From a phage: DNA of 64,000 nucleotides. The notes under the pieces are model-generated. The model was not told the origin of the DNA and ran no database searches. It saw only the letters and a program-made list of their open reading frames with translations. The DNA lies in the sequence record PX421306.1; one strand, given 5' to 3'. Shown one piece after another: positions 17,855 through 30,362 of the stretch (the first letter of the stretch is position 1; every line of letters begins with the position of its first letter). A program made the position numbers and the translations under genes.

Positions 17855-18325
17855 TTAATCATGTTTCCACACCCCATCGGTATTTGACCAAAGTCGCTGA
17901 TTATCTGAACCTCGCCACAGCTTTTTGGTCGGAAGATTTTTCTCATACTTCCCATCAATAATAACATCAACATATTTAAGCATTTCTAGTTGTTTAATAT
18001 CTTCAAACTTATATCCTGTCCACAACCAAATGCTTTTATTCGGATAAAGATTTTTTACTGTTTGAACAATGCAATGAACAACATCTCGGTTATCTGGATA
18101 GAGAGGGTCTCCTCCAGTTATAGTTAATCCTTCTATATAATCATTATTCAAACATTTAATTAATTGTTCTAGTGTTTCACCAGTGAATGGAACGCCATTT
18201 CTAGCATTCCATGTTGATTTATTATAACACCCTTCACATTTATGCAAACAACCTGTAACGAAAAGAACGACCCTGCATCCAGGGCCATTCACAAAATCAC
18301 AGGGATAAAATCTATCGTAATTCAT
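17855..18325 (-). CDS. nrdG: anaerobic ribonucleotide reductase activating protein NrdG (radical SAM)
   Basis: 156 aa; CxxxCxxC-type cluster GCLHKCEGCYN. Confidence 0.9.
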   Translation of the reverse strand: MNYDRFYPCDFVNGPGCRVVLFVTGCLHKCEGCYNKSTWNARNGVPFTGETLEQLIKCLNNDYIEGLTITGGDPLYPDNRDVVHCIVQTVKNLYPNKSIWLWTGYKFEDIKQLEMLKYVDVIIDGKYEKNLPTKKLWRGSDNQRLWSNTDGVWKHD

Positions 18326-20139
18326 TGGTGTTTAACCCTATGCATGATTTCTTTATTTTTGCCGAGATTAAATCCGCGTTCATTCGGATTTCCCAAATAA
18401 CCACAAGTTCTTCTTATTGTGTTCATCTTTTTAGGATCAGTTTCTCCACAAATAGAACAAACAAATCCGTTTTCAGTAGGAGTCATTTCATGGGTACTTC
18501 CACACGTAAAACATTTATCTACTGGCATGTTAACACCAAAATAATCTAAATGTTGTGCAGCATAATCCCATACAGCCTCAAGACCTTTTAGGTTATTTTT
18601 CATATCAGGAAGTTCAACATAAGAAATGTGACCGCCTGTCGCAATGAAATGATATGGGGCTTCGCGAGAAATCTTTTCAAACGGAGTAATATTTTCTTCT
18701 ACTGAAACGTGGAAACTATTAGTGTACCAACCTTTATCAGTAACATCTTTTACGCTTCCATATTTTTCGGTATCAAGTTTACAGAAGCGATAGCACAGGT
18801 TTTCAGCAGGTGTAGAATACAAACTAAAAGCAAAACCAGTTCTTTCAGTCCACTGCTTAAGACGAGCATTCATTTTAGTTAAAATTTCCTGTCCAATATC
18901 ACGACCGACAAGAATATTCAATTCGTGAATACCAATGTATCCTAAGGACACTGAACTTCTACCGTTTTTAAATAACTCAATTATATCGTCATCAGGTTTA
19001 AGACGAACCCCGAATGCACCTTCTTGGTAAAGAATAGGAGCAACAGTCGCTTTAACTCCTTTTAAGGAACTAATTCTACACATCAAAGCTTCAAAACACA
19101 AATCCATTCGTTCATTGAACAATTCGGCAAATTTCTGTTCATTGAATTGTGTTCCAATATAAGAATCTAACGCAATGCGAGGAAGATTCAGTGTTACAAC
19201 GCCAAGATTATTACGTCCATCAAGAATTTCATTACCAGTCGAATCTTTCCATACGCTCAAGAAACTACGGCAACCCATTGGAGAAACAGGAATAGATGAA
19301 CCGGTGATAGCTTTATTGTTCTTAGCCGAAATGATGTCAGGATACATTCTTTTACTTGCACACTCTAGAGCAAGCTGCTTAATATCATAGTTCGGATCGT
19401 CTTTATAAAGATTAACACCTTCTTCAACGAACATAACAAGTTTAGGGAAAATAGGAGTTATCCCATCACGACCAAGGCCTTTAATACGATTTTTCAGAAT
19501 TGCTTTCTGAATCATTCGTTCAGTCCAGTCAGTTCCCGTACCAAATGTAATTGTTACAAAAGGCGTTTGTCCGTTTGAACTAAAGAGAGTATTTACTTCG
19601 TATTCATAAGCTTGGAACGCATCGTATACGTCTTTTTCTGTTTTAGATTGGGCATAATTCAACGCATCAGCGATTTGCCATTTTTCTGCATCCTCAATAT
19701 GTTTTGCATAGGTGCGTTTAACATAAGGAGAAAGGACTTTATCTACATTCGCAAAAGTCGTTCCACCATATTGATGGGAAGCAACCTGTGCAGTAATTTG
19801 TGCCATAATTGCAGTAGCAACACCGATTGATTTAGGAGTTTCAATCTGTGCATTACCGAGCTTAAATCCGTTCTCAAGCATTCCTTTTAAATCTACTAAA
19901 CAGCAATTAGTAAATGGAAGAGCAGGGGAATAATCAATATCATGGAAATGAATAATTCCGCTTTCATGCGCTTTCATAATAAAAGACGGGACCATATTTT
20001 TGGCAATGTGTTTAGACACAATACCAGCCATAAGGTCCCGTTGAGTTGGAAAAACACGAGAATCTTTATTAGCATTCTCGTTTAAAAGGTCTTTATTAGT
20101 TTTATGAATCAATCCTTCAATTTCTTTTTCAATTGTCAT
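18322..20139 (-). CDS. nrdD: anaerobic ribonucleotide reductase NrdD (glycyl radical enzyme), intronless
   Basis: 605-aa uninterrupted ORF; C-terminal glycyl radical motif RRTCGY; Zn-ribbon cysteines. Confidence 0.93.
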   Translation of the reverse strand: MTIEKEIEGLIHKTNKDLLNENANKDSRVFPTQRDLMAGIVSKHIAKNMVPSFIMKAHESGIIHFHDIDYSPALPFTNCCLVDLKGMLENGFKLGNAQIETPKSIGVATAIMAQITAQVASHQYGGTTFANVDKVLSPYVKRTYAKHIEDAEKWQIADALNYAQSKTEKDVYDAFQAYEYEVNTLFSSNGQTPFVTITFGTGTDWTERMIQKAILKNRIKGLGRDGITPIFPKLVMFVEEGVNLYKDDPNYDIKQLALECASKRMYPDIISAKNNKAITGSSIPVSPMGCRSFLSVWKDSTGNEILDGRNNLGVVTLNLPRIALDSYIGTQFNEQKFAELFNERMDLCFEALMCRISSLKGVKATVAPILYQEGAFGVRLKPDDDIIELFKNGRSSVSLGYIGIHELNILVGRDIGQEILTKMNARLKQWTERTGFAFSLYSTPAENLCYRFCKLDTEKYGSVKDVTDKGWYTNSFHVSVEENITPFEKISREAPYHFIATGGHISYVELPDMKNNLKGLEAVWDYAAQHLDYFGVNMPVDKCFTCGSTHEMTPTENGFVCSICGETDPKKMNTIRRTCGYLGNPNERGFNLGKNKEIMHRVKHQ

Positions 20140-22211: not shown

Positions 22212-22454
22212 TTATTCCTTAATTCCTAGTACTTGTTTAAAAGTCTCGTCGTAATCAAGACTTTGACCTGTTTGTTCTTTATGTTTGTATATAATATCAC
22301 TTACTTCTGATAGCATATTTTTATATGAACGAGTTAAAGCAGATTTAAGCACGCTGTATCTATCAGGAAATTTACCATGTTCATTATAATACGCTATTGC
22401 TAATTCACGGACTGCCTTTTCAGCAATCTCCATATATTCTTTACGCTTTGTCAT
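22212..22454 (-). CDS. hypothetical protein (nrdC.1-like)
   Basis: Start trimmed to [13 protein letters not shown] with stop/start overlap. Confidence 0.45.
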
Positions 22455-22455
22455 T

Positions 22456-22845
22456 TTAATCCAAAATATTATTAGGCATTGGTTGAACACTCGCAAGTTC
22501 TTTAAAGAACTCAGTAGAGTCAGGTAATTTAACCATTTCCGGAGCATGCTTACTAAATTTATGTTTGCAATGACGGCATTTATATTCAAGTTCCGGTTTA
22601 CGCCAGTTAATCAATTGAACCTGTTCAGTACCGCATTCAGGACAATTAGGAACGTTTTTAGAAGCCCTTTCGCGGCGTTCAACCATAACCATAATGGCAT
22701 CCCAGGCTGGAGGTTTAAAATCTAAATCATCACAACCATGAATCTTTCCACGCATTTCTAAATCGTCTTCTTCACCAGCCATAATAATTTTAATTAGACT
22801 GGAATTACTTGAAGCTGCAATATCTTCTAATAGACGCTTTTTCAT
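22456..22845 (-). CDS. hypothetical zinc-ribbon protein
   Basis: 129 aa; CPECG...CRHC four-Cys motif. Confidence 0.5.
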
Positions 22846-23771
22846 TTCAGTACCTCAATAGCATTACGTAAACCATTTGCTTTTGCATTAAGAGCTTTTA
22901 ACAATTTAGTGTGTTCGGCAATTTGGGCTTCAACTTCAATCAAACGAGCATTGAGATATTCGCGTTCTTCGCTCAAGCTATCAACCTTTTCTACTTTAGG
23001 TTCTTTTACAACTGGCTTATATGTATTAGGGTTCTTCAGTTTAATTAGAATACGTGAACTGTATAACATTGAACCATTATTTTCGATTTCGTCATACATT
23101 TCTACTACGTCCATGATTTTTAACATCATGCGGAGTTTATAAGATAACGAACGAATAGTTTTGTTGTGCTTATTAATTTCTCTAGCTGTCATGGTGCCGA
23201 GATTACGTGAGTAATAATAAGGAACCTGGATATTAATTAATACTGATGAACCACCTGGCTTGTGTGTTACTTCATCAGCAATAACCCAGTCCTTAACATG
23301 AACTGTATTTGTACGGTCATCGCCCGCGGTAAATAGTTTACGAGCATGCTTAAAAAGCATATTCACTTGGTCATTGAATTGACAAGCAAATTTATCAGCA
23401 AATTTAGTTTCAGGAATGGTAGATAACCAATCAGCCAAATGGGTCTTTTTAACATCGTTAACAATAGTAAATTCAACCAAATCAGTTATAGATGTCTCAG
23501 ATTTAATAAAGCTCGGCTTCATAAAGTTTTTAATGTTATCGCGAGCTACAGTAGAAGATAACATACGAGAACGTTTAAACCATTGAAGCAAATTGCCCAA
23601 CGAATGAGAATAAGCGTTCTGTGTATCTTTACAGATATGATTTTCCTGGCCAACATACTGAAGGAAATCACGAAGAATATTATTGATTACTGCTCTGTGT
23701 CCGATCTGATAATTACGGTGTTTAGTAATAAGACTGTCAAAATAATCAATATAATGTTTACGAGTTTTCAT
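22842..23771 (-). CDS. hypothetical protein with C-terminal coiled-coil tail
   Basis: 309 aa; last ~35 residues heptad-like (LNARLIEVEAQIAEHTKLLKALNAKANGL). Confidence 0.55.
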   Translation of the reverse strand: MKTRKHYIDYFDSLITKHRNYQIGHRAVINNILRDFLQYVGQENHICKDTQNAYSHSLGNLLQWFKRSRMLSSTVARDNIKNFMKPSFIKSETSITDLVEFTIVNDVKKTHLADWLSTIPETKFADKFACQFNDQVNMLFKHARKLFTAGDDRTNTVHVKDWVIADEVTHKPGGSSVLINIQVPYYYSRNLGTMTAREINKHNKTIRSLSYKLRMMLKIMDVVEMYDEIENNGSMLYSSRILIKLKNPNTYKPVVKEPKVEKVDSLSEEREYLNARLIEVEAQIAEHTKLLKALNAKANGLRNAIEVLK

Positions 23772-23823
23772 GTTCTTCTCACTTGGTTAATGATTTATAC
23801 TCCGAGCCATCCTTGGCTTTAAA

Positions 23824-24825
23824 TTACTTAATTAACTGTAAAGCTTGTTCAAGACGATCCAGGCGATTAACAGATTCTTCCCAAATCCTTTTAGCCTGCT
23901 CATATTCTTTCTGCGCTTTATTAGAAATTTCTAGAACTTCTTTATAAGCCTTTTCTAGTGCAATAACTTCTGGACGAATTTCTACAGGTTCAGACGAATC
24001 ATCAAGATTATCCATTAGTTCCTCAAGTGTAATTTCTTCTTTAGGAGTATTCACAATTTCATCACATTTTTGTTGGTAAATTTCTTTATCAGTCGGTGAG
24101 TACGCACATTTCACTTCACGAAGACTAACTACAATTTTATATCCTTCCCAACCGCATATATTCTTAAAAGGATACGTATGAATATTTTCTACTGTTTCCA
24201 TACAAAGTAATGCGGTTTCTAATTGACGAGTTATAGTGCTAGCAATTGAGAAAAATTTATTAATGTTCTTTTGGTTAGTTTCTGGTGTAAAAAATCCATA
24301 ATTCACAAAAATAGATACTTTATTTTTATCAAGTTCATATTCTTTTATGATAATCATATCAGAAGCCAAAGGATGAATTTGACGATAATCGCCATAACAT
24401 AATTTAGAAGCTGATTTTAGAATCTGTCCTTTGAAAAGTCTGAAATTACTAATCCAACGACGAGTAAAAATATTCTCAGGGTCTTCTTTATTATTAAGAT
24501 GATAAGAATTAACATCACCGAACCAATTATATCCTACTACATCTTTGGTTCGTTTAATTTCTTTCCCAAAATTACCAAGAATATCCCGATTAACCAAATA
24601 TGAAAGAAGACGAGACTCTTTAAAGGTTTTCTTGATAAGATCTTTATCTACACGGCTAGAAATTTTACGAATTTCATGAATAAATTTAGTAGAAGAAACA
24701 ATACCTGCATCAACACTATTGAGCCATTGATTGATAATAGAAAGAACGCTATTTTGGCCAAACATCGGTATAGCTTTATCATCAATAACGCTATTGAATG
24801 ATTTGATATATTCGTTACGAGTCAT
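23824..24825 (-). CDS. hypothetical protein with C-terminal coiled-coil tail
   Basis: Start trimmed to MTRNEYIK; C-terminal heptad segment; early promoter immediately upstream. Confidence 0.55.
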   Translation of the reverse strand: MTRNEYIKSFNSVIDDKAIPMFGQNSVLSIINQWLNSVDAGIVSSTKFIHEIRKISSRVDKDLIKKTFKESRLLSYLVNRDILGNFGKEIKRTKDVVGYNWFGDVNSYHLNNKEDPENIFTRRWISNFRLFKGQILKSASKLCYGDYRQIHPLASDMIIIKEYELDKNKVSIFVNYGFFTPETNQKNINKFFSIASTITRQLETALLCMETVENIHTYPFKNICGWEGYKIVVSLREVKCAYSPTDKEIYQQKCDEIVNTPKEEITLEELMDNLDDSSEPVEIRPEVIALEKAYKEVLEISNKAQKEYEQAKRIWEESVNRLDRLEQALQLIK

Positions 24826-24847
24826 ATTAATCTCCTCAGTAGAAAGT

Positions 24848-24890
24848 AAGAACATTATACCACATCCTTGTGGCAAAGTAAACTAGTTTA
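24848..24890 (-). promoter_or_regulatory. T4-type early promoter
   Basis: Minus strand GTTTAC (24878-24883), 18 nt, TGgTATAAT (24854-24859). Confidence 0.6.
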
Positions 24891-25911
24891 GTGCATTTAG
24901 TGCGTTGTTCAGTTTAGAACGTTGCTTCGTAAGATTTTTGACTTTTTCTTGAGCTTTTTCTAGCATCTTTTCAGCTTCTAGCACTTCATTAGTTGCTTTA
25001 ACGAGTTCATCATCTACTGCCTTGATAGACTTCTCAATCGCATCGGCATGCCATTTTTCAACAGGTTTAAGACTCGGATTTTCAACAGGAAGAAAATTCA
25101 CTTTATTGAATTTCCATGAATCCTTATTACCTGAACTATACATCCAAAATTTAGGATCGTTTGATGAGTAATTAGATAAATTTAAATTTAAGTTATCTTG
25201 CACTTCTTGCTTTTTCTCTTGCGTGACTTCGTCCTTTCTCAAAAAATCGTATTTAAATGAAACGATCATATCAAGTTCATATGTTGTTGTTTCTAATTTA
25301 AATCGTTCGAAATGTTGTGAAATCTTAGACTGAACAGCGGCAACAACATCCATATACTTAAATGCTTCTGTCAACTGCGATTTAAGGCATTCGCAAATTG
25401 AAAGAGAATTTTTTGTATTAGGTTTAAAGCTAATTCGTGCAGTTCTGTTATTTTCTTTTAATGGTCTTACTTCCATCTGAAGAGTATAACCATCAAATTT
25501 CAGGTTCTTTAAGTTAATATCAGAACCTTTTAATCGACTCGCAGTTGATAAAATTTGCTTTAATTGTCTACGGAACAGAGCAATAAATCTCCATTCAATA
25601 CGATAATGATTTGGATTGAAAAATCCAGATGATAAATCGACCTTACTTTGACCAACGCCTTGAACAAATAAAGGATTTTTATAATCAATAGTTTTACAGA
25701 AATCGGTGAGTTGCTCACGAGCAGTCATTTGTGTAATATAACCCGCTTTACTAAAATTACGCACCCATTCACTGCTATTCGTATACTTAAAGTGATGAAT
25801 AACACGATTAACTTTATCAGGGTCTAAATTATTTTCACACAAAAATGTCATAACATCACGAGTATAGCTGGCGTTACGAACCATATCTTCAATTTGAGAA
25901 CGAGTTTTCAT
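24883..25911 (-). CDS. hypothetical protein with C-terminal coiled-coil tail
   Basis: 342 aa; C-terminal LEAEKMLEKAQEKVKNLTKQRSKLNNALNALN. Confidence 0.55.
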   Translation of the reverse strand: MKTRSQIEDMVRNASYTRDVMTFLCENNLDPDKVNRVIHHFKYTNSSEWVRNFSKAGYITQMTAREQLTDFCKTIDYKNPLFVQGVGQSKVDLSSGFFNPNHYRIEWRFIALFRRQLKQILSTASRLKGSDINLKNLKFDGYTLQMEVRPLKENNRTARISFKPNTKNSLSICECLKSQLTEAFKYMDVVAAVQSKISQHFERFKLETTTYELDMIVSFKYDFLRKDEVTQEKKQEVQDNLNLNLSNYSSNDPKFWMYSSGNKDSWKFNKVNFLPVENPSLKPVEKWHADAIEKSIKAVDDELVKATNEVLEAEKMLEKAQEKVKNLTKQRSKLNNALNALN

Positions 25912-25919
25912 GGTGTTCC

Positions 25920-26822
25920 TTAAGATTTAAGTAAATCAACAATTTTAATTAACTTTTCACGCTCAGATTTAGCTTTACTACTCAATCCAGATAGTCTGAA
26001 AATTTCATCGTCATATTGTTGAATAGAAATATTCAGCTCTTCAATCTGCTTATTAAAATAATCAATTTGTTCAGAATGTTTTTCATTACTACGAACTGGT
26101 ACAGGTTTTGCAGGCAATGTAGTTGAACTGGATTCATTCGGGCGATAAATTAAAATACAACTTGAACCAATAGGGCATTTTGCACCAGATGAATATTCTA
26201 ATGTTCCAGCTTCTTTTAAAACTTCAAAAGCTAAACAGAGATGATGCCCCATATTAACATAATCTGTAGAGTGAGCTCTGATGTAATAATCATCTCCACG
26301 AATACTAAATTTAAAGCATTTAAGGTCTTCTGTATTATTGGTCTTAAAAATCATTTGTTTATCTAGACCTTTAGCTAATCGAGCGCCCAATGCTAATAAT
26401 CGTCGTTGATTTTCCCACAAATCTGCAATCATTTGGTCAAATGATAACTTCGGCATTAGTCGACCATAAAGGTCATATCCTTTATTATAATTACGAAGGA
26501 TTTCACTCGCGTTAATACGAGACAATGCTCCAATTTTATTAAGGGCTTTCATAATACGATTAGATAAACCCATTCCAGACCCGTTTGTTCGCTGTAAATG
26601 TTTTTCTAATCCAAATCCAATATCAACTTTAAACTTATCTAAAATTTCGGCGTGAACATCTCTGTCGATAACATTCAAATCCAAAGTTGGGTTAAATCTA
26701 TGAAAAAATTTATCTGACTCTCCACGACGAAGTACAGTCCATTCATTCAATTTTTTATTAACTAAAGATTTAATTACTGCATTGACATTATTAATTACTA
26801 CTGACATATTTTCCTCACTCAA
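25920..26822 (-). CDS. hypothetical protein with C-terminal coiled-coil tail
   Basis: 300 aa; C-terminal heptad segment. Confidence 0.55.
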   Translation of the reverse strand: MSEENMSVVINNVNAVIKSLVNKKLNEWTVLRRGESDKFFHRFNPTLDLNVIDRDVHAEILDKFKVDIGFGLEKHLQRTNGSGMGLSNRIMKALNKIGALSRINASEILRNYNKGYDLYGRLMPKLSFDQMIADLWENQRRLLALGARLAKGLDKQMIFKTNNTEDLKCFKFSIRGDDYYIRAHSTDYVNMGHHLCLAFEVLKEAGTLEYSSGAKCPIGSSCILIYRPNESSSTTLPAKPVPVRSNEKHSEQIDYFNKQIEELNISIQQYDDEIFRLSGLSSKAKSEREKLIKIVDLLKS

Positions 26823-27271: not shown

Positions 27272-27799
27272 TTATGCGAGTACCGTCTTTAACCGTTCTT
27301 CAAACTTCCGAAGAGTATTTTGGCGTTCAGCTCTTTGCTTTTTGTAAGTTTCAATACGCTCTGAAATGAGAGTGTATCGTTCATTTACTGATTCTTTCAT
27401 AAAATCAGGAATTTCACGAGAAGCTTTAATCTCGTCAAATTTATCAATAACAGCTTGCTCTTCAGCAATTAAGTTATCATACATTAAAATATCTTTCTTG
27501 ATGAACTCAATATCTTCTTGAGTTACACGAGATAATTTAGATGCTTTATCCTTTTTGTACTGTTCGTTAGTATCACGAGACCAGTGTAATGTACGATTTT
27601 TATTCGTATTTTTGTAAATTTCTACAATACCGATCTCATCAATAATAACGATCCAATTCCAACGCGATTTGTAAATTTGTCCTCCATCAACAGTGATTTC
27701 ACCTCCGATTGAGATGTCATTAAAGAACTTGCTTTGTGCTTCAGATTTAAATTTACCATCGTTGTAATTTACCAAGTTGAAAATATCTTTAGCGTTCAT
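27272..27799 (-). CDS. hypothetical protein
   Basis: 175 aa; charged helical C-terminus; early promoter upstream. Confidence 0.5.
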   Translation of the reverse strand: MNAKDIFNLVNYNDGKFKSEAQSKFFNDISIGGEITVDGGQIYKSRWNWIVIIDEIGIVEIYKNTNKNRTLHWSRDTNEQYKKDKASKLSRVTQEDIEFIKKDILMYDNLIAEEQAVIDKFDEIKASREIPDFMKESVNERYTLISERIETYKKQRAERQNTLRKFEERLKTVLA

Positions 27800-28263: not shown

Positions 28264-29232
28264 TTATTTCAGAAGAGTAACCTCAGCAATTTCTTCCCAA
28301 CCGTTTTTGTCGGTCATAATAAAGTCAGCAAGATAAAGAGCAGTACGCAGTGAAACATTGCGTAAACGGTTAACATTAACTTTCATCCATGATAATGCTT
28401 TATAAGTTTCTTCATCAGAAAGACCACGCTTTTGCATCATGTCAGTTGAAAGAATAACATCTTCAACCCTGACCATAATTTCTTCATTAGTGTGAACACC
28501 CAAATCCAAATAAACCGAGCGGGACACTAATGCTTGTAAATGTGGAGCAAGTTTAGTACCACGGTCTAATTCGCGGTCAATGTCAACGTTTGTGATAAAA
28601 ACAATCGTTCCTTTAAATTCAAACTCACGGTCAATGCCTTTTTCTTCTAAGTAAGAAGACGCAGTGCTCCAGCAGACTTTACGGGTCTCTCCAGTGTCCA
28701 GAGCAGCTTTTAGAAGATTAAGAATGTCCATATCAGAGAAAACATCCACATCATCAATTAAAAGGACAGAATTCTCTTCACGATTATTCCAAAGCTGCTC
28801 ATAAAGACCAATACCAGAGATTTTACCATTAATGCTTTTATATTCAATGTATCCAATATCATTTGCTTTATTTAAAGCTTTATCTAAAGAATACGTTTTA
28901 CCAATACCTGCTGCGCCAGAGATAATTAATGAACGAATATTTCCATTAATAATACCGTTCGTCATCATTCCCATAACATTAAATCTTTTATTAATGCGGG
29001 TTTTCATATCTTCATATGATTCTTTAACTTCTTCAACTTTTACACCATCATATGAAATATCTGATTTGTAAACCCAAACACCGCGACGTTTACCGTCAAT
29101 TTCAACAAAAACTTTACCATCTCCTTGTGCATCTACCGGAGCATTATCTGGGAACCATTCGCCTAAGAGCTCAAAAGTTCCAGAGATTTCTTTACCGAAG
29201 TAGATACCCTTATTGATAGTTACAGTTTTCAT
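28264..29232 (-). CDS. P-loop NTPase (AAA-like ATPase), function unknown
   Basis: Start trimmed to MKTVTINKG; Walker A GAAGIGKT and Walker B VLLIDDVD. Confidence 0.6.
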   Translation of the reverse strand: MKTVTINKGIYFGKEISGTFELLGEWFPDNAPVDAQGDGKVFVEIDGKRRGVWVYKSDISYDGVKVEEVKESYEDMKTRINKRFNVMGMMTNGIINGNIRSLIISGAAGIGKTYSLDKALNKANDIGYIEYKSINGKISGIGLYEQLWNNREENSVLLIDDVDVFSDMDILNLLKAALDTGETRKVCWSTASSYLEEKGIDREFEFKGTIVFITNVDIDRELDRGTKLAPHLQALVSRSVYLDLGVHTNEEIMVRVEDVILSTDMMQKRGLSDEETYKALSWMKVNVNRLRNVSLRTALYLADFIMTDKNGWEEIAEVTLLK

Positions 29233-29257
29233 TTTATTCTCCAAATCCGTATCAGTT

Positions 29258-29318
29258 GATAGTTGTATAGTACCATAAAGCTTTATGCTTGTAAACAGTT
29301 TTGTGAAAAAATTTTTGA
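29258..29318 (-). promoter_or_regulatory. T4-type early promoter with leader cassette (duplicate of 2805-2868)
   Basis: GTTTAC (29291-29296), 18 nt, TGgTACTATAC; leader through the ATG nearly identical to the copy upstream of 2543-2779. Confidence 0.6.
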
Positions 29319-29321
29319 AAT

Positions 29322-29346
29322 AAAAAAAGGGAGCCCGAAGGCTCCC
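29322..29346 (-). terminator. intrinsic terminator
   Basis: GGGAGCC-UUCG-GGCUCCC then U7 on the minus transcript, just after the stop of the 29349-30362 gene. Confidence 0.7.
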
Positions 29347-29348
29347 TA

Positions 29349-30362
29349 TCATTTATAATAACTTCGATGGTTTTCAAGATAAACCCTCTCAAGGAAGTCA
29401 TCCCAGAAACCCATGTCTACTTTTTGCTGCATACCGTTCTTAGAAGCTTCAATAGATGCTGCTTCTACTTGATCGACCACATCTTCCAAAAACTCTTGAA
29501 CAGTTTTAAATGGGTGTTTACCCAGCTTCACGTCGAGAATAAATGGAGCGTCTTGAAGTGGATAGACTAAGTCACCAGTTTTGTAAATTTCCAATAGTTG
29601 GAGTCCACCACGACAAGCATGACTCAGAGCTTTCCAGTCAATACCTTCATTAGCTTCAGCCTTACGAGCGCGCTCGCCATATTCAGCATCAAGTTTATTC
29701 AGGGATTGCTTGAGCTCTGTAATTGATAACGTTGTTTGGTACTTACGTCCGAGAACAGTATAGAACGTTTGTGGACCTGTTTTCTCATGGTTATGGAATA
29801 CCCATTCACAGAATTCGTTTTCTGGAAGACGGTGTTTAATATCTGCAATTTTAGTACGACGTTGTCCTTGTGTTCCATCTTCTCGGTAATCAATCCACTG
29901 CTCAGGGATTTGATTAACTACTTTCAATACATCACGTAATGCAGCCAAACGAGAACCTTTGACACCGTATTTAGAAGCTTGCTTGCGGACATATCCTAAA
30001 TATGATTTCATGTTAGTTGTATAAAAACGAGAACGGTTGTCTTGAATAAACTTCCACACATCAGGTAAATCAGATTTAACCACTAGTTCAGGTGGAGTGT
30101 GAAGCATATCTAATGCTACGGTTTCACCATCTGCTGCTAATTTAAAGAAATATTTAAGACTGTATAGTTCATGGTCAATATCATCTTTAGTGTTTTTAGA
30201 TGATGTGTTGTTAGTGTTTTTACTCATATGCTCTTTAACATTTCCGATAAGAATATCACGAGCAGGAGGAACAAAGATTTCTTTAAAATCTACATCAGAT
30301 TCTGGAGTAGAAGTTCCATAAAGATGACTACCAAAATAGCTTTTCATTACTGTTTTCATCAT
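29349..30362 (-). CDS. nucleotidyltransferase-fold (pol-beta superfamily) protein, function unknown
   Basis: 337 aa; GSHLYGTSTPESDVDF matches hG[GS]x9-13DhD plus a downstream Asp (ALDMLH); long C-terminal extension. Confidence 0.6.
   Translation of the reverse strand: MMKTVMKSYFGSHLYGTSTPESDVDFKEIFVPPARDILIGNVKEHMSKNTNNTSSKNTKDDIDHELYSLKYFFKLAADGETVALDMLHTPPELVVKSDLPDVWKFIQDNRSRFYTTNMKSYLGYVRKQASKYGVKGSRLAALRDVLKVVNQIPEQWIDYREDGTQGQRRTKIADIKHRLPENEFCEWVFHNHEKTGPQTFYTVLGRKYQTTLSITELKQSLNKLDAEYGERARKAEANEGIDWKALSHACRGGLQLLEIYKTGDLVYPLQDAPFILDVKLGKHPFKTVQEFLEDVVDQVEAASIEASKNGMQQKVDMGFWDDFLERVYLENHRSYYK

Follow-up and report, generated by a model that had tools for sequence, protein, structure and literature searches.

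Among the adjacent genes nrdC.3, nrdC.4, nrdC.5 and nrdC.6 of phage T4, nrdC.5 is the only one with a proven role against host defence. A T4 deletion mutant fails on ECOR17 owing to Dsr1, and plating on MG1655 with dsr1 is regained when T4 nrdC.5 is supplied in trans (Srikant, Guegler and Laub, eLife 2022; PMC9391042). That study considers nrdC.5 on its own, as an uncharacterised early gene, and describes neither its paralogy nor its coiled-coil tail nor its fold. Genes nrdC.1-6 belong to the large fragments that viable T4 with a reduced genome lacks (PMC9825161), and gene 49.2, a neighbour, acts as an inhibitor of the OLD defence system (PMC13096335). Here we analysed the corresponding genes in a 64,000-nucleotide stretch of phage DNA (sequence record PX421306.1; hereafter the window). 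The four genes form an array of apparent tandem paralogues, each of their products ends in a heptad-repeat tail, and the family is spread across several phage genera. The genes have long been known but little studied. In the literature we searched, only four papers mention nrdC.3 to nrdC.6, and none seems to treat them as a single family built in this way; a search on DUF7235 (the Pfam family of nrdC.5) and anti-Dsr1 found no paper.

Other phage proteins invite comparison. The T-even internal proteins IPI, IPII and IPIII likewise form a small non-essential family with a short conserved module on variable bodies, and at least IPI and IPIII counter host defences, as far as these are summarised in PMC9391042. 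Their module, however, is an N-terminal capsid-targeting sequence on proteins that are injected with the DNA, whereas that of nrdC.3-nrdC.6 is a predicted C-terminal coiled coil on the products of early, non-structural genes; we saw no sequence relationship between the two groups. DSAD1 resembles nrdC.5 in that it neutralises a SIR2-domain abortive-infection protein, reportedly by binding DSR2. It differs in coming from unrelated Bacillus phages and in its target, which is DSR2 rather than Dsr1, and we found no evidence of a coiled-coil tail or a paralogue array for it. On the host side, according to a 2026 preprint (PMC12803255), EcDsr1 detects the major capsid protein by means of a TPR sensor, and tail terminators are detected by another family of receptors.

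The window is Tequatrovirus DNA. Around the array, the genes lie on the minus strand in the order nrdD, 49, pin, 49.x, nrdC and nrdC.1 to nrdC.11. This order is identical to that of the T4 reference, from whose annotation we took the names nrdC.3-nrdC.6; the comparison with T4 that the initial annotation of this DNA had proposed matched in both names and order. The four genes are located between nrdC and nrdC.7-nrdC.11, on the early-gene strand and amid accessory genes. A 6-kb region of the window matched 746 phage records (best, Escherichia phage Ge15, 96.7%), and 487 of these covered at least 80% of it. The initial annotation had called the array unusual for a T-even genome. It is instead the canonical T4 nrdC.3-nrdC.6 block, with related arrays in three further genera.

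To describe the proteins, we use "head" for the part that precedes the C-terminal tail. The heads had been described as dissimilar N-terminal domains, which our comparisons contradict. nrdC.3 and nrdC.4 are plain homologues by sequence: BLASTP aligned them with 25% identity over 270 amino acids (aa; E = 4e-8), hhalign of their profiles gave E = 7e-14 (probability 97-98%), and both matched the full phrog_1435 profile (E = 1.8e-116 for nrdC.3 and 6.7e-168 for nrdC.4). Precomputed Pfam PF26897 occurs on all nrdC.4 homologues. Remote homology is indicated by profile alignments for nrdC.5, and by profile alignments together with predicted structures for nrdC.6. The nrdC.4/nrdC.3 and nrdC.5 profiles aligned over 130 columns (E = 6e-5). 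When the families were enlarged with Mosigvirus sequences, full-length nrdC.3 and nrdC.5 aligned in 231 columns and stayed colinear up to their final residue (E = 1.4e-5, probability 80%); probabilities between nrdC.3/4 and nrdC.5 ranged from 65% to 80%. Profiles of the heads alone linked nrdC.4 with nrdC.5 (E = 4.8e-4) and nrdC.5 with nrdC.6 (E = 3.3e-3). Head identity among the four proteins is 12-25%. As families, nrdC.5 matched DUF7235 (Pfam PF23882) along its whole length (421.8 bits, cut-off 30; all 307 model positions, 1-307), while nrdC.6 matched phrog_2257 (E = 3.1e-152) and carried precomputed PF26899 on 105 of 105 homologues.

Profile alignments also located two motifs common to the four heads. 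The first, of about 21 residues, was chosen by three independent pairwise profile alignments of nrdC.4, nrdC.5 and nrdC.6 with a mutually consistent register (FKESRLLSYLVNRDILGNFGK, FSKAGYITQMTAREQLTDFCK and LNKIGALSRINASEILRNYNK); the second is a helix followed by G-D. Scans of the four proteins against Pfam and NCBIfam returned only DUF7235 plus sub-threshold noise and no enzymatic domain, and sequence searches of the PDB recovered nothing beyond designed helical repeats and coiled coils of a generic kind. One of the sub-threshold matches, weak and far below the cut-offs, paired nrdC.3 residues 30-86 (window 23517-23685) with the SAM-like domain at the N-terminus of tyrosine recombinases (E = 0.0014 in NCBIfam and 0.063 in Pfam). 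The name "thioredoxin" is given to homologues of nrdC.4, nrdC.5 and nrdC.6 in many records of GenBank and UniRef. We rejected this label, as none of the four proteins has a thioredoxin-family Pfam match; it probably spread from the neighbouring gene nrdC.

We compared folds using AlphaFold2 (AF2) monomer models of nrdC.4 and nrdC.6. The nrdC.4 model (predicted local distance difference test score, pLDDT, 80.7) starts with six helices (residues 3-84), followed by an α/β core (88-235), a linker of low confidence (261-283) and a single terminal helix of 48 residues (285-332). The nrdC.6 model (pLDDT 76.7) has terminal helices at residues 242-271 and 277-294. Although built from independent alignments, the two models share one order of elements: paired helices, α-α, ββ, α, ββ, low-confidence linker and terminal helix. 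In BFVD, both matched the same full-length uncharacterised proteins of 300-370 aa from Enterobacter, Pectobacterium and Acinetobacter T4-like phages (A0A7G3KGN9, A0A0A0PZG4, A0A345AUV5, E5E4A2 and E5EPQ6), with E = 1e-8 to 1e-4 and 12-17% identity. The architecture of the family is thus predicted to be an N-terminal helical domain, an α/β core, a short, variable and probably disordered linker, and an amphipathic C-terminal helix of 45-55 residues.

In the models, the α-ββ-α-ββ topology of the core appears to resemble that of tail terminators; the structures noted in this respect are SaPI1 9mu2, Mu 9khy, T5 8bcp, lambda gpU 3fz2 and the pyocin collar 6u5f. Scans of Pfam, PHROGs and NCBIfam and sequence searches of the PDB gave no match to a tail-terminator family, and nrdC.3-nrdC.6 have no sequence similarity to tail-terminator or tail-completion proteins (lambda gpU, T5 p142, Mu, SaPI1 DUF3168 and the gene transfer agent, GTA, protein). 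They differ from these proteins also in their additional helical domain at the N-terminus and in their linker and coiled coil, in being deletable in T4, and in lying in an early accessory region rather than in a late structural module.

The tails of all four proteins are helices of 45-55 residues with a single unbroken heptad register. We scored heptad periodicity with a heuristic of our own, which is neither COILS nor MARCOIL. Over the C-terminal 45 residues of the 102 window proteins, nrdC.5 ranked first, nrdC.8 second, nrdC.3 third and nrdC.4 fourth; nrdC.6 ranked eighth, with its best 28-residue stretch slightly upstream. Among 67 further T4 proteins, none attained the scores of these tails. 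When the last 50 residues were shuffled with composition preserved, the observed score was reached in 3 of 500 shuffles for nrdC.3, 25 for nrdC.4, none for nrdC.5 and 1 for nrdC.6. The hydrophobic periodicity at positions a and d is unbroken over at least four heptads in each tail and exceeds what composition gives.

The tails also resemble one another. All end, in the same register, in the motif L-x-x-[A/I]-[L/I/V]-x-x-L-K (for example, KLIKIVDLLKS); as this motif was defined after the sequences had been seen, its uniqueness among 169 proteins is descriptive. Similarity between end-anchored tail profiles exceeded column shuffles in all six pairs (p ≤ 0.009). Against the stricter shuffles that preserve heptad class, it was higher for nrdC.3-nrdC.5 (p < 2e-4), nrdC.3-nrdC.6 (p = 0.020), nrdC.3-nrdC.4 (p = 0.029) and nrdC.4-nrdC.6 (p = 0.030), but not clearly so for nrdC.5-nrdC.6 (p = 0.08) or nrdC.4-nrdC.5 (p = 0.17). 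Before the last two heptads, the tail sequences are family-specific. Between genera, the tail is the best-conserved region of the nrdC.4, nrdC.5 and nrdC.6 orthologue groups, at 62% (other regions, 41-53%), 39% (23-31%) and 63% (40-45%), respectively. Within Tequatrovirus, it is the least variable part of nrdC.4 and nrdC.6.

The neighbouring nrdC.8 (window 27272-27799; 175 aa) has a C-terminal heptad helix of 41 residues that is significant against shuffles. We rejected it as a fifth member of the family, since its similarity to the four tails was not above heptad-preserving shuffles and no profile matched it. Profile searches for further paralogues within the window found none.

These results sharpen the initial annotation, which had proposed a shared C-terminal oligomerisation or docking module on variable heads. 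Heptad scores, shuffles and AF2 helices all confirm the tails, although at 45-55 residues rather than about 35, and comparison of the C-termini revealed both coiled-coil propensity and similarity beyond composition. The coiled-coil module is common to all four and the heads have diverged to low identity, as claimed. The array is not, however, one module shuffled onto unrelated domains, because the heads appear to be paralogues that share one fold and have diverged, and colinearity runs from the N-terminal helices through to the final residue.

Copy number varies across the Straboviridae. Tequatrovirus has all four genes. Mosigvirus has three, corresponding to nrdC.6, nrdC.5 and nrdC.3 (hmmsearch E = 4e-42, 6e-20 and 3e-165), and Gaprivervirus and Dhakavirus each have three, corresponding to nrdC.6, nrdC.5 and nrdC.4; these orthologous arrays occupy the same genomic place. 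A Klebsiella Jiaodavirus and an Acinetobacter Lazarusvirus each have one heptad-tailed gene of about 330 aa in the same region, which in the Lazarusvirus directly adjoins nrdC. We assigned these single genes by position, tail and weak colinear profile matches, plus a Foldseek match to a 335-aa protein of that Acinetobacter phage. In RB43, no copy was seen in the region examined. A HMMER profile search of 1.84 billion representatives returned only 10 clusters, each of them nrdC.3/4-like or a fragment; the family has thus diverged further than sequence searches can follow. Word-indexed searches for distant relatives recovered orthologues only, and a scan of viral_contigs found five near-identical loci. 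By sequence and model comparison, the array appears to have arisen by tandem duplication and divergence.

Alleles appear to be exchanged as well. The window is 93-99% identical to T4 DNA, but only 58-77% identical at 22300-23700, which covers nrdC.2 and most of nrdC.3. The window nrdC.3 protein is 61% identical to T4 nrdC.3 and 77% identical to the Mosigvirus copy. Identity to T4 is unevenly distributed: it is 81% for the N-terminal helices and for the tail, but falls to 49% within the α/β core and to 33% within the linker, a sequence pattern indicating that core and linker were replaced as an allele. The single-copy homologues of Acinetobacter phages are, within one genus, either 95-99% or about 36% identical (L010:18394-19401 and relatives), which suggests allele replacement there too. 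The word "exchangeable" in the initial annotation thus suits the nrdC.3 core and linker, but not the origin of the array. Rearranged forms also occur: in three contigs, a natural fusion (P0119) joins nrdC.5 residues 146-274 to nrdC.3 residues 137-309, so that nrdC.4 is deleted, and in the nrdC.6 of Shigella phage Sf25 about 80 residues are duplicated internally (P0121).

The reading we favour, with a probability of about 0.55, is that nrdC.3-nrdC.6 are one Straboviridae family of non-essential early proteins with an anti-defence or host-range role, in which diversifying heads are carried on an oligomerising tail. The window nrdC.5 is 95% identical to T4 nrdC.5 and in the same position; it is the orthologue of the anti-Dsr1 protein, whereas nrdC.3, nrdC.4 and nrdC.6 are paralogues. 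The term "effector" used in the initial annotation fits this protein. For the three paralogues, we infer an anti-defence role. The accessory, arms-race character of the family shows in its varying copy number, the allele swap in nrdC.3, the Acinetobacter homologues of about 36% identity, and the deletion and fusion variants. In the mechanism we propose, the tail would self-associate as a coiled coil and so display at least two heads on flexible tethers. Each head, chiefly through its fast-evolving α/β core, would bind a host protein, which for nrdC.5 may be the Dsr1 sirtuin defence protein or a component of its pathway. By divergence, nrdC.3, nrdC.4 and nrdC.6 would have come to neutralise further factors of host defence or exclusion, their heads adapting to different host factors as the genes duplicated, diverged and exchanged alleles.

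Several observations weigh against this proposal. The T4 reference nrdC.6 is frameshifted after about residue 259 and ends in unrelated residues (275 aa), without a coiled-coil tail (L014:7567-8394), and under laboratory conditions the loss does no obvious damage; unlike the T4 reference, the window and other phages retain the tail. Within Tequatrovirus, the nrdC.5 tail is not the least variable part of the protein, as 35% of its positions vary compared to 19% in the core. Finally, the sequence tie of nrdC.6 to the other three proteins is weak when taken alone (hhalign E = 0.003-0.1), and its membership depends on predicted structures.

A different role for the tail would be to serve as a docking peptide for one common host or phage partner, or to form mixed bundles, such that the array makes one multi-headed complex. 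The shared heptad register and exact end motif, the four of six pairs in which tail similarity is above the generic coiled-coil level, and the conservation of the tail between genera are all as expected if this were so. However, outside the last two heptads the tails are family-specific, no candidate emerged for the partner, and single-copy phages retain the tail, so hetero-assembly cannot be obligatory. We consider this explanation unlikely. That the common features arose by chance, as helical, charged C-termini of four unrelated proteins in an AT-rich genome, is extremely improbable. nrdC.8 does end in a heptad helix with no detectable similarity to the four, and the nrdC.4 tail is only marginally above its shuffles, but three of the four tails are within the top four of the window proteins, no further T4 protein matches them, and head homology by BLASTP, profiles and BFVD matches contradicts this explanation.

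The tail-terminator-like core raises other possibilities. The heads could mimic the tail terminator and act as early decoys that occupy Avs- or Dsr-type TPR sensors without activating them, an idea we hold to be improbable. In a specific version, which we find doubtful, the mimics of this conserved virion fold would be displayed in several copies on a coiled-coil stalk and plug Dsr1- or Avs-type sensors without triggering them, with each paralogue or swapped core allele tuned to a different receptor. If true, the family would constitute structural decoys against bacterial pattern-recognition immunity. Alternatively, the proteins may serve the phage's own biology, either in assembly or scaffolding tied to the tail-terminator fold, in exclusion of competing phages or in nucleotide metabolism, to which the labels "nrdC" and "thioredoxin" would point. 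The predicted fold and the many records annotated as thioredoxin point in this direction. This is nonetheless quite improbable, since neither Pfam nor NCBIfam detects a thioredoxin or other enzymatic domain, the genes are deletable and lie among accessory genes on the early-gene strand, copy number varies (with none seen in the RB43 region examined), and the anti-Dsr1 phenotype of nrdC.5 has been demonstrated.

If nrdC.3-nrdC.6 are a diversifying anti-defence family, there are practical consequences. For decades the T4 map has listed the four genes as "hypothetical", and in three databases they are split among three families with no stated relationship. Recognition of one fast-diverging family with one anti-defence member makes nrdC.3, nrdC.4, nrdC.6 and the single-copy relatives in Klebsiella and Acinetobacter phages candidates, which can be screened for new pairs of defence systems and counter-defence proteins. 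It also offers a testable design principle, a diversifying head on a conserved oligomerising tail, that is relevant to predicting the host range of therapeutic T4-like phages.

The coordinates of the array are given in Table 1. The four open reading frames (ORFs) of the initial annotation are at the positions it gave, all on the minus strand, except that it extended nrdC.6 to 26822. There, a TTG five codons upstream of a conserved ATG would add 5 aa. From the sequences, the ATG at 26807 is the more likely start, because all orthologues begin MS[QV].IN. The nrdC.4 start is backed by the N-terminus MTRNEYI, which is invariant across all orthologues. The promoter-like site before this gene sits where longer versions of the nrdC.4 ORF would start. 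As promoter and terminator scans were overall no better than shuffles (43 sites compared to 38.2 expected), we report this single strong site alone.

Table 1. Positions of genes, predicted helices, head motifs and the promoter-like site in the window
Feature	Position	Strand	Remarks
nrdC.3	22842..23771	-	309 aa; ORF, phrog_1435, T4 annotation; divergent allele
nrdC.4	23824..24825	-	333 aa; start ATG 24825
nrdC.5	24883..25911	-	342 aa; Pfam DUF7235
nrdC.6	25920..26807	-	295 aa from the more likely start, ATG 26807 (MSVVIN...)
nrdC.3 heptad helix	22845..22979	-	C-terminal aa 265-309; begins SLSEEREYL
nrdC.4 heptad helix	23827..23973	-	C-terminal aa 285-333 (...NRLDRLEQALQLIK)
nrdC.5 heptad helix	24886..25050	-	C-terminal aa 288-342 (...KQRSKLNNALNALN)
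nrdC.6 C-terminal helix	25923..26084	-	kinked at SGLSS (...SEREKLIKIVDLLKS)
Head motif 1, nrdC.3	23517..23579	-	equivalent by profile alignments
Head motif 1, nrdC.4	24562..24624	-	FKESRLLSYLVNRDILGNFGK; profile alignments
Head motif 1, nrdC.5	25693..25755	-	equivalent by profile alignments
Head motif 1, nrdC.6	26481..26543	-	equivalent by profile alignments
Head motif 2, nrdC.3	23319..23357	-	
Head motif 2, nrdC.4	24388..24423	-	ILKSASKLCYGD
Head motif 2, nrdC.5	25519..25554	-	
Head motif 2, nrdC.6	26361..26396	-	
Promoter-like site	24854..24882	-	TTTACT-17-TATAAT plus upstream TG; consensus match only; nrdC.5/nrdC.4 spacer, just before the nrdC.4 start codon

Several neighbouring genes have features of their own. 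nrdC.2 (window 22456-22845) encodes 129 aa with a Pfam Zn_ribbon_8 match (E = 1.5e-5) that is below the cut-off; its DNA is only 62% identical to that of T4, where the annotated nrdC.2 coding sequence is shorter (315 nt). On the other side of the array, nrdC.10 (P-loop, AAA/STAND-like) and nrdC.11 (an RlaP-type nucleotidyltransferase) are a conserved pair (window 28264-30362), with a strong hairpin terminator at their junction (29328-29347). Lastly, nrdD (window 18322-20139) is one uninterrupted ORF of 605 aa, while T4 nrdD is split by a group I intron carrying I-TevII.

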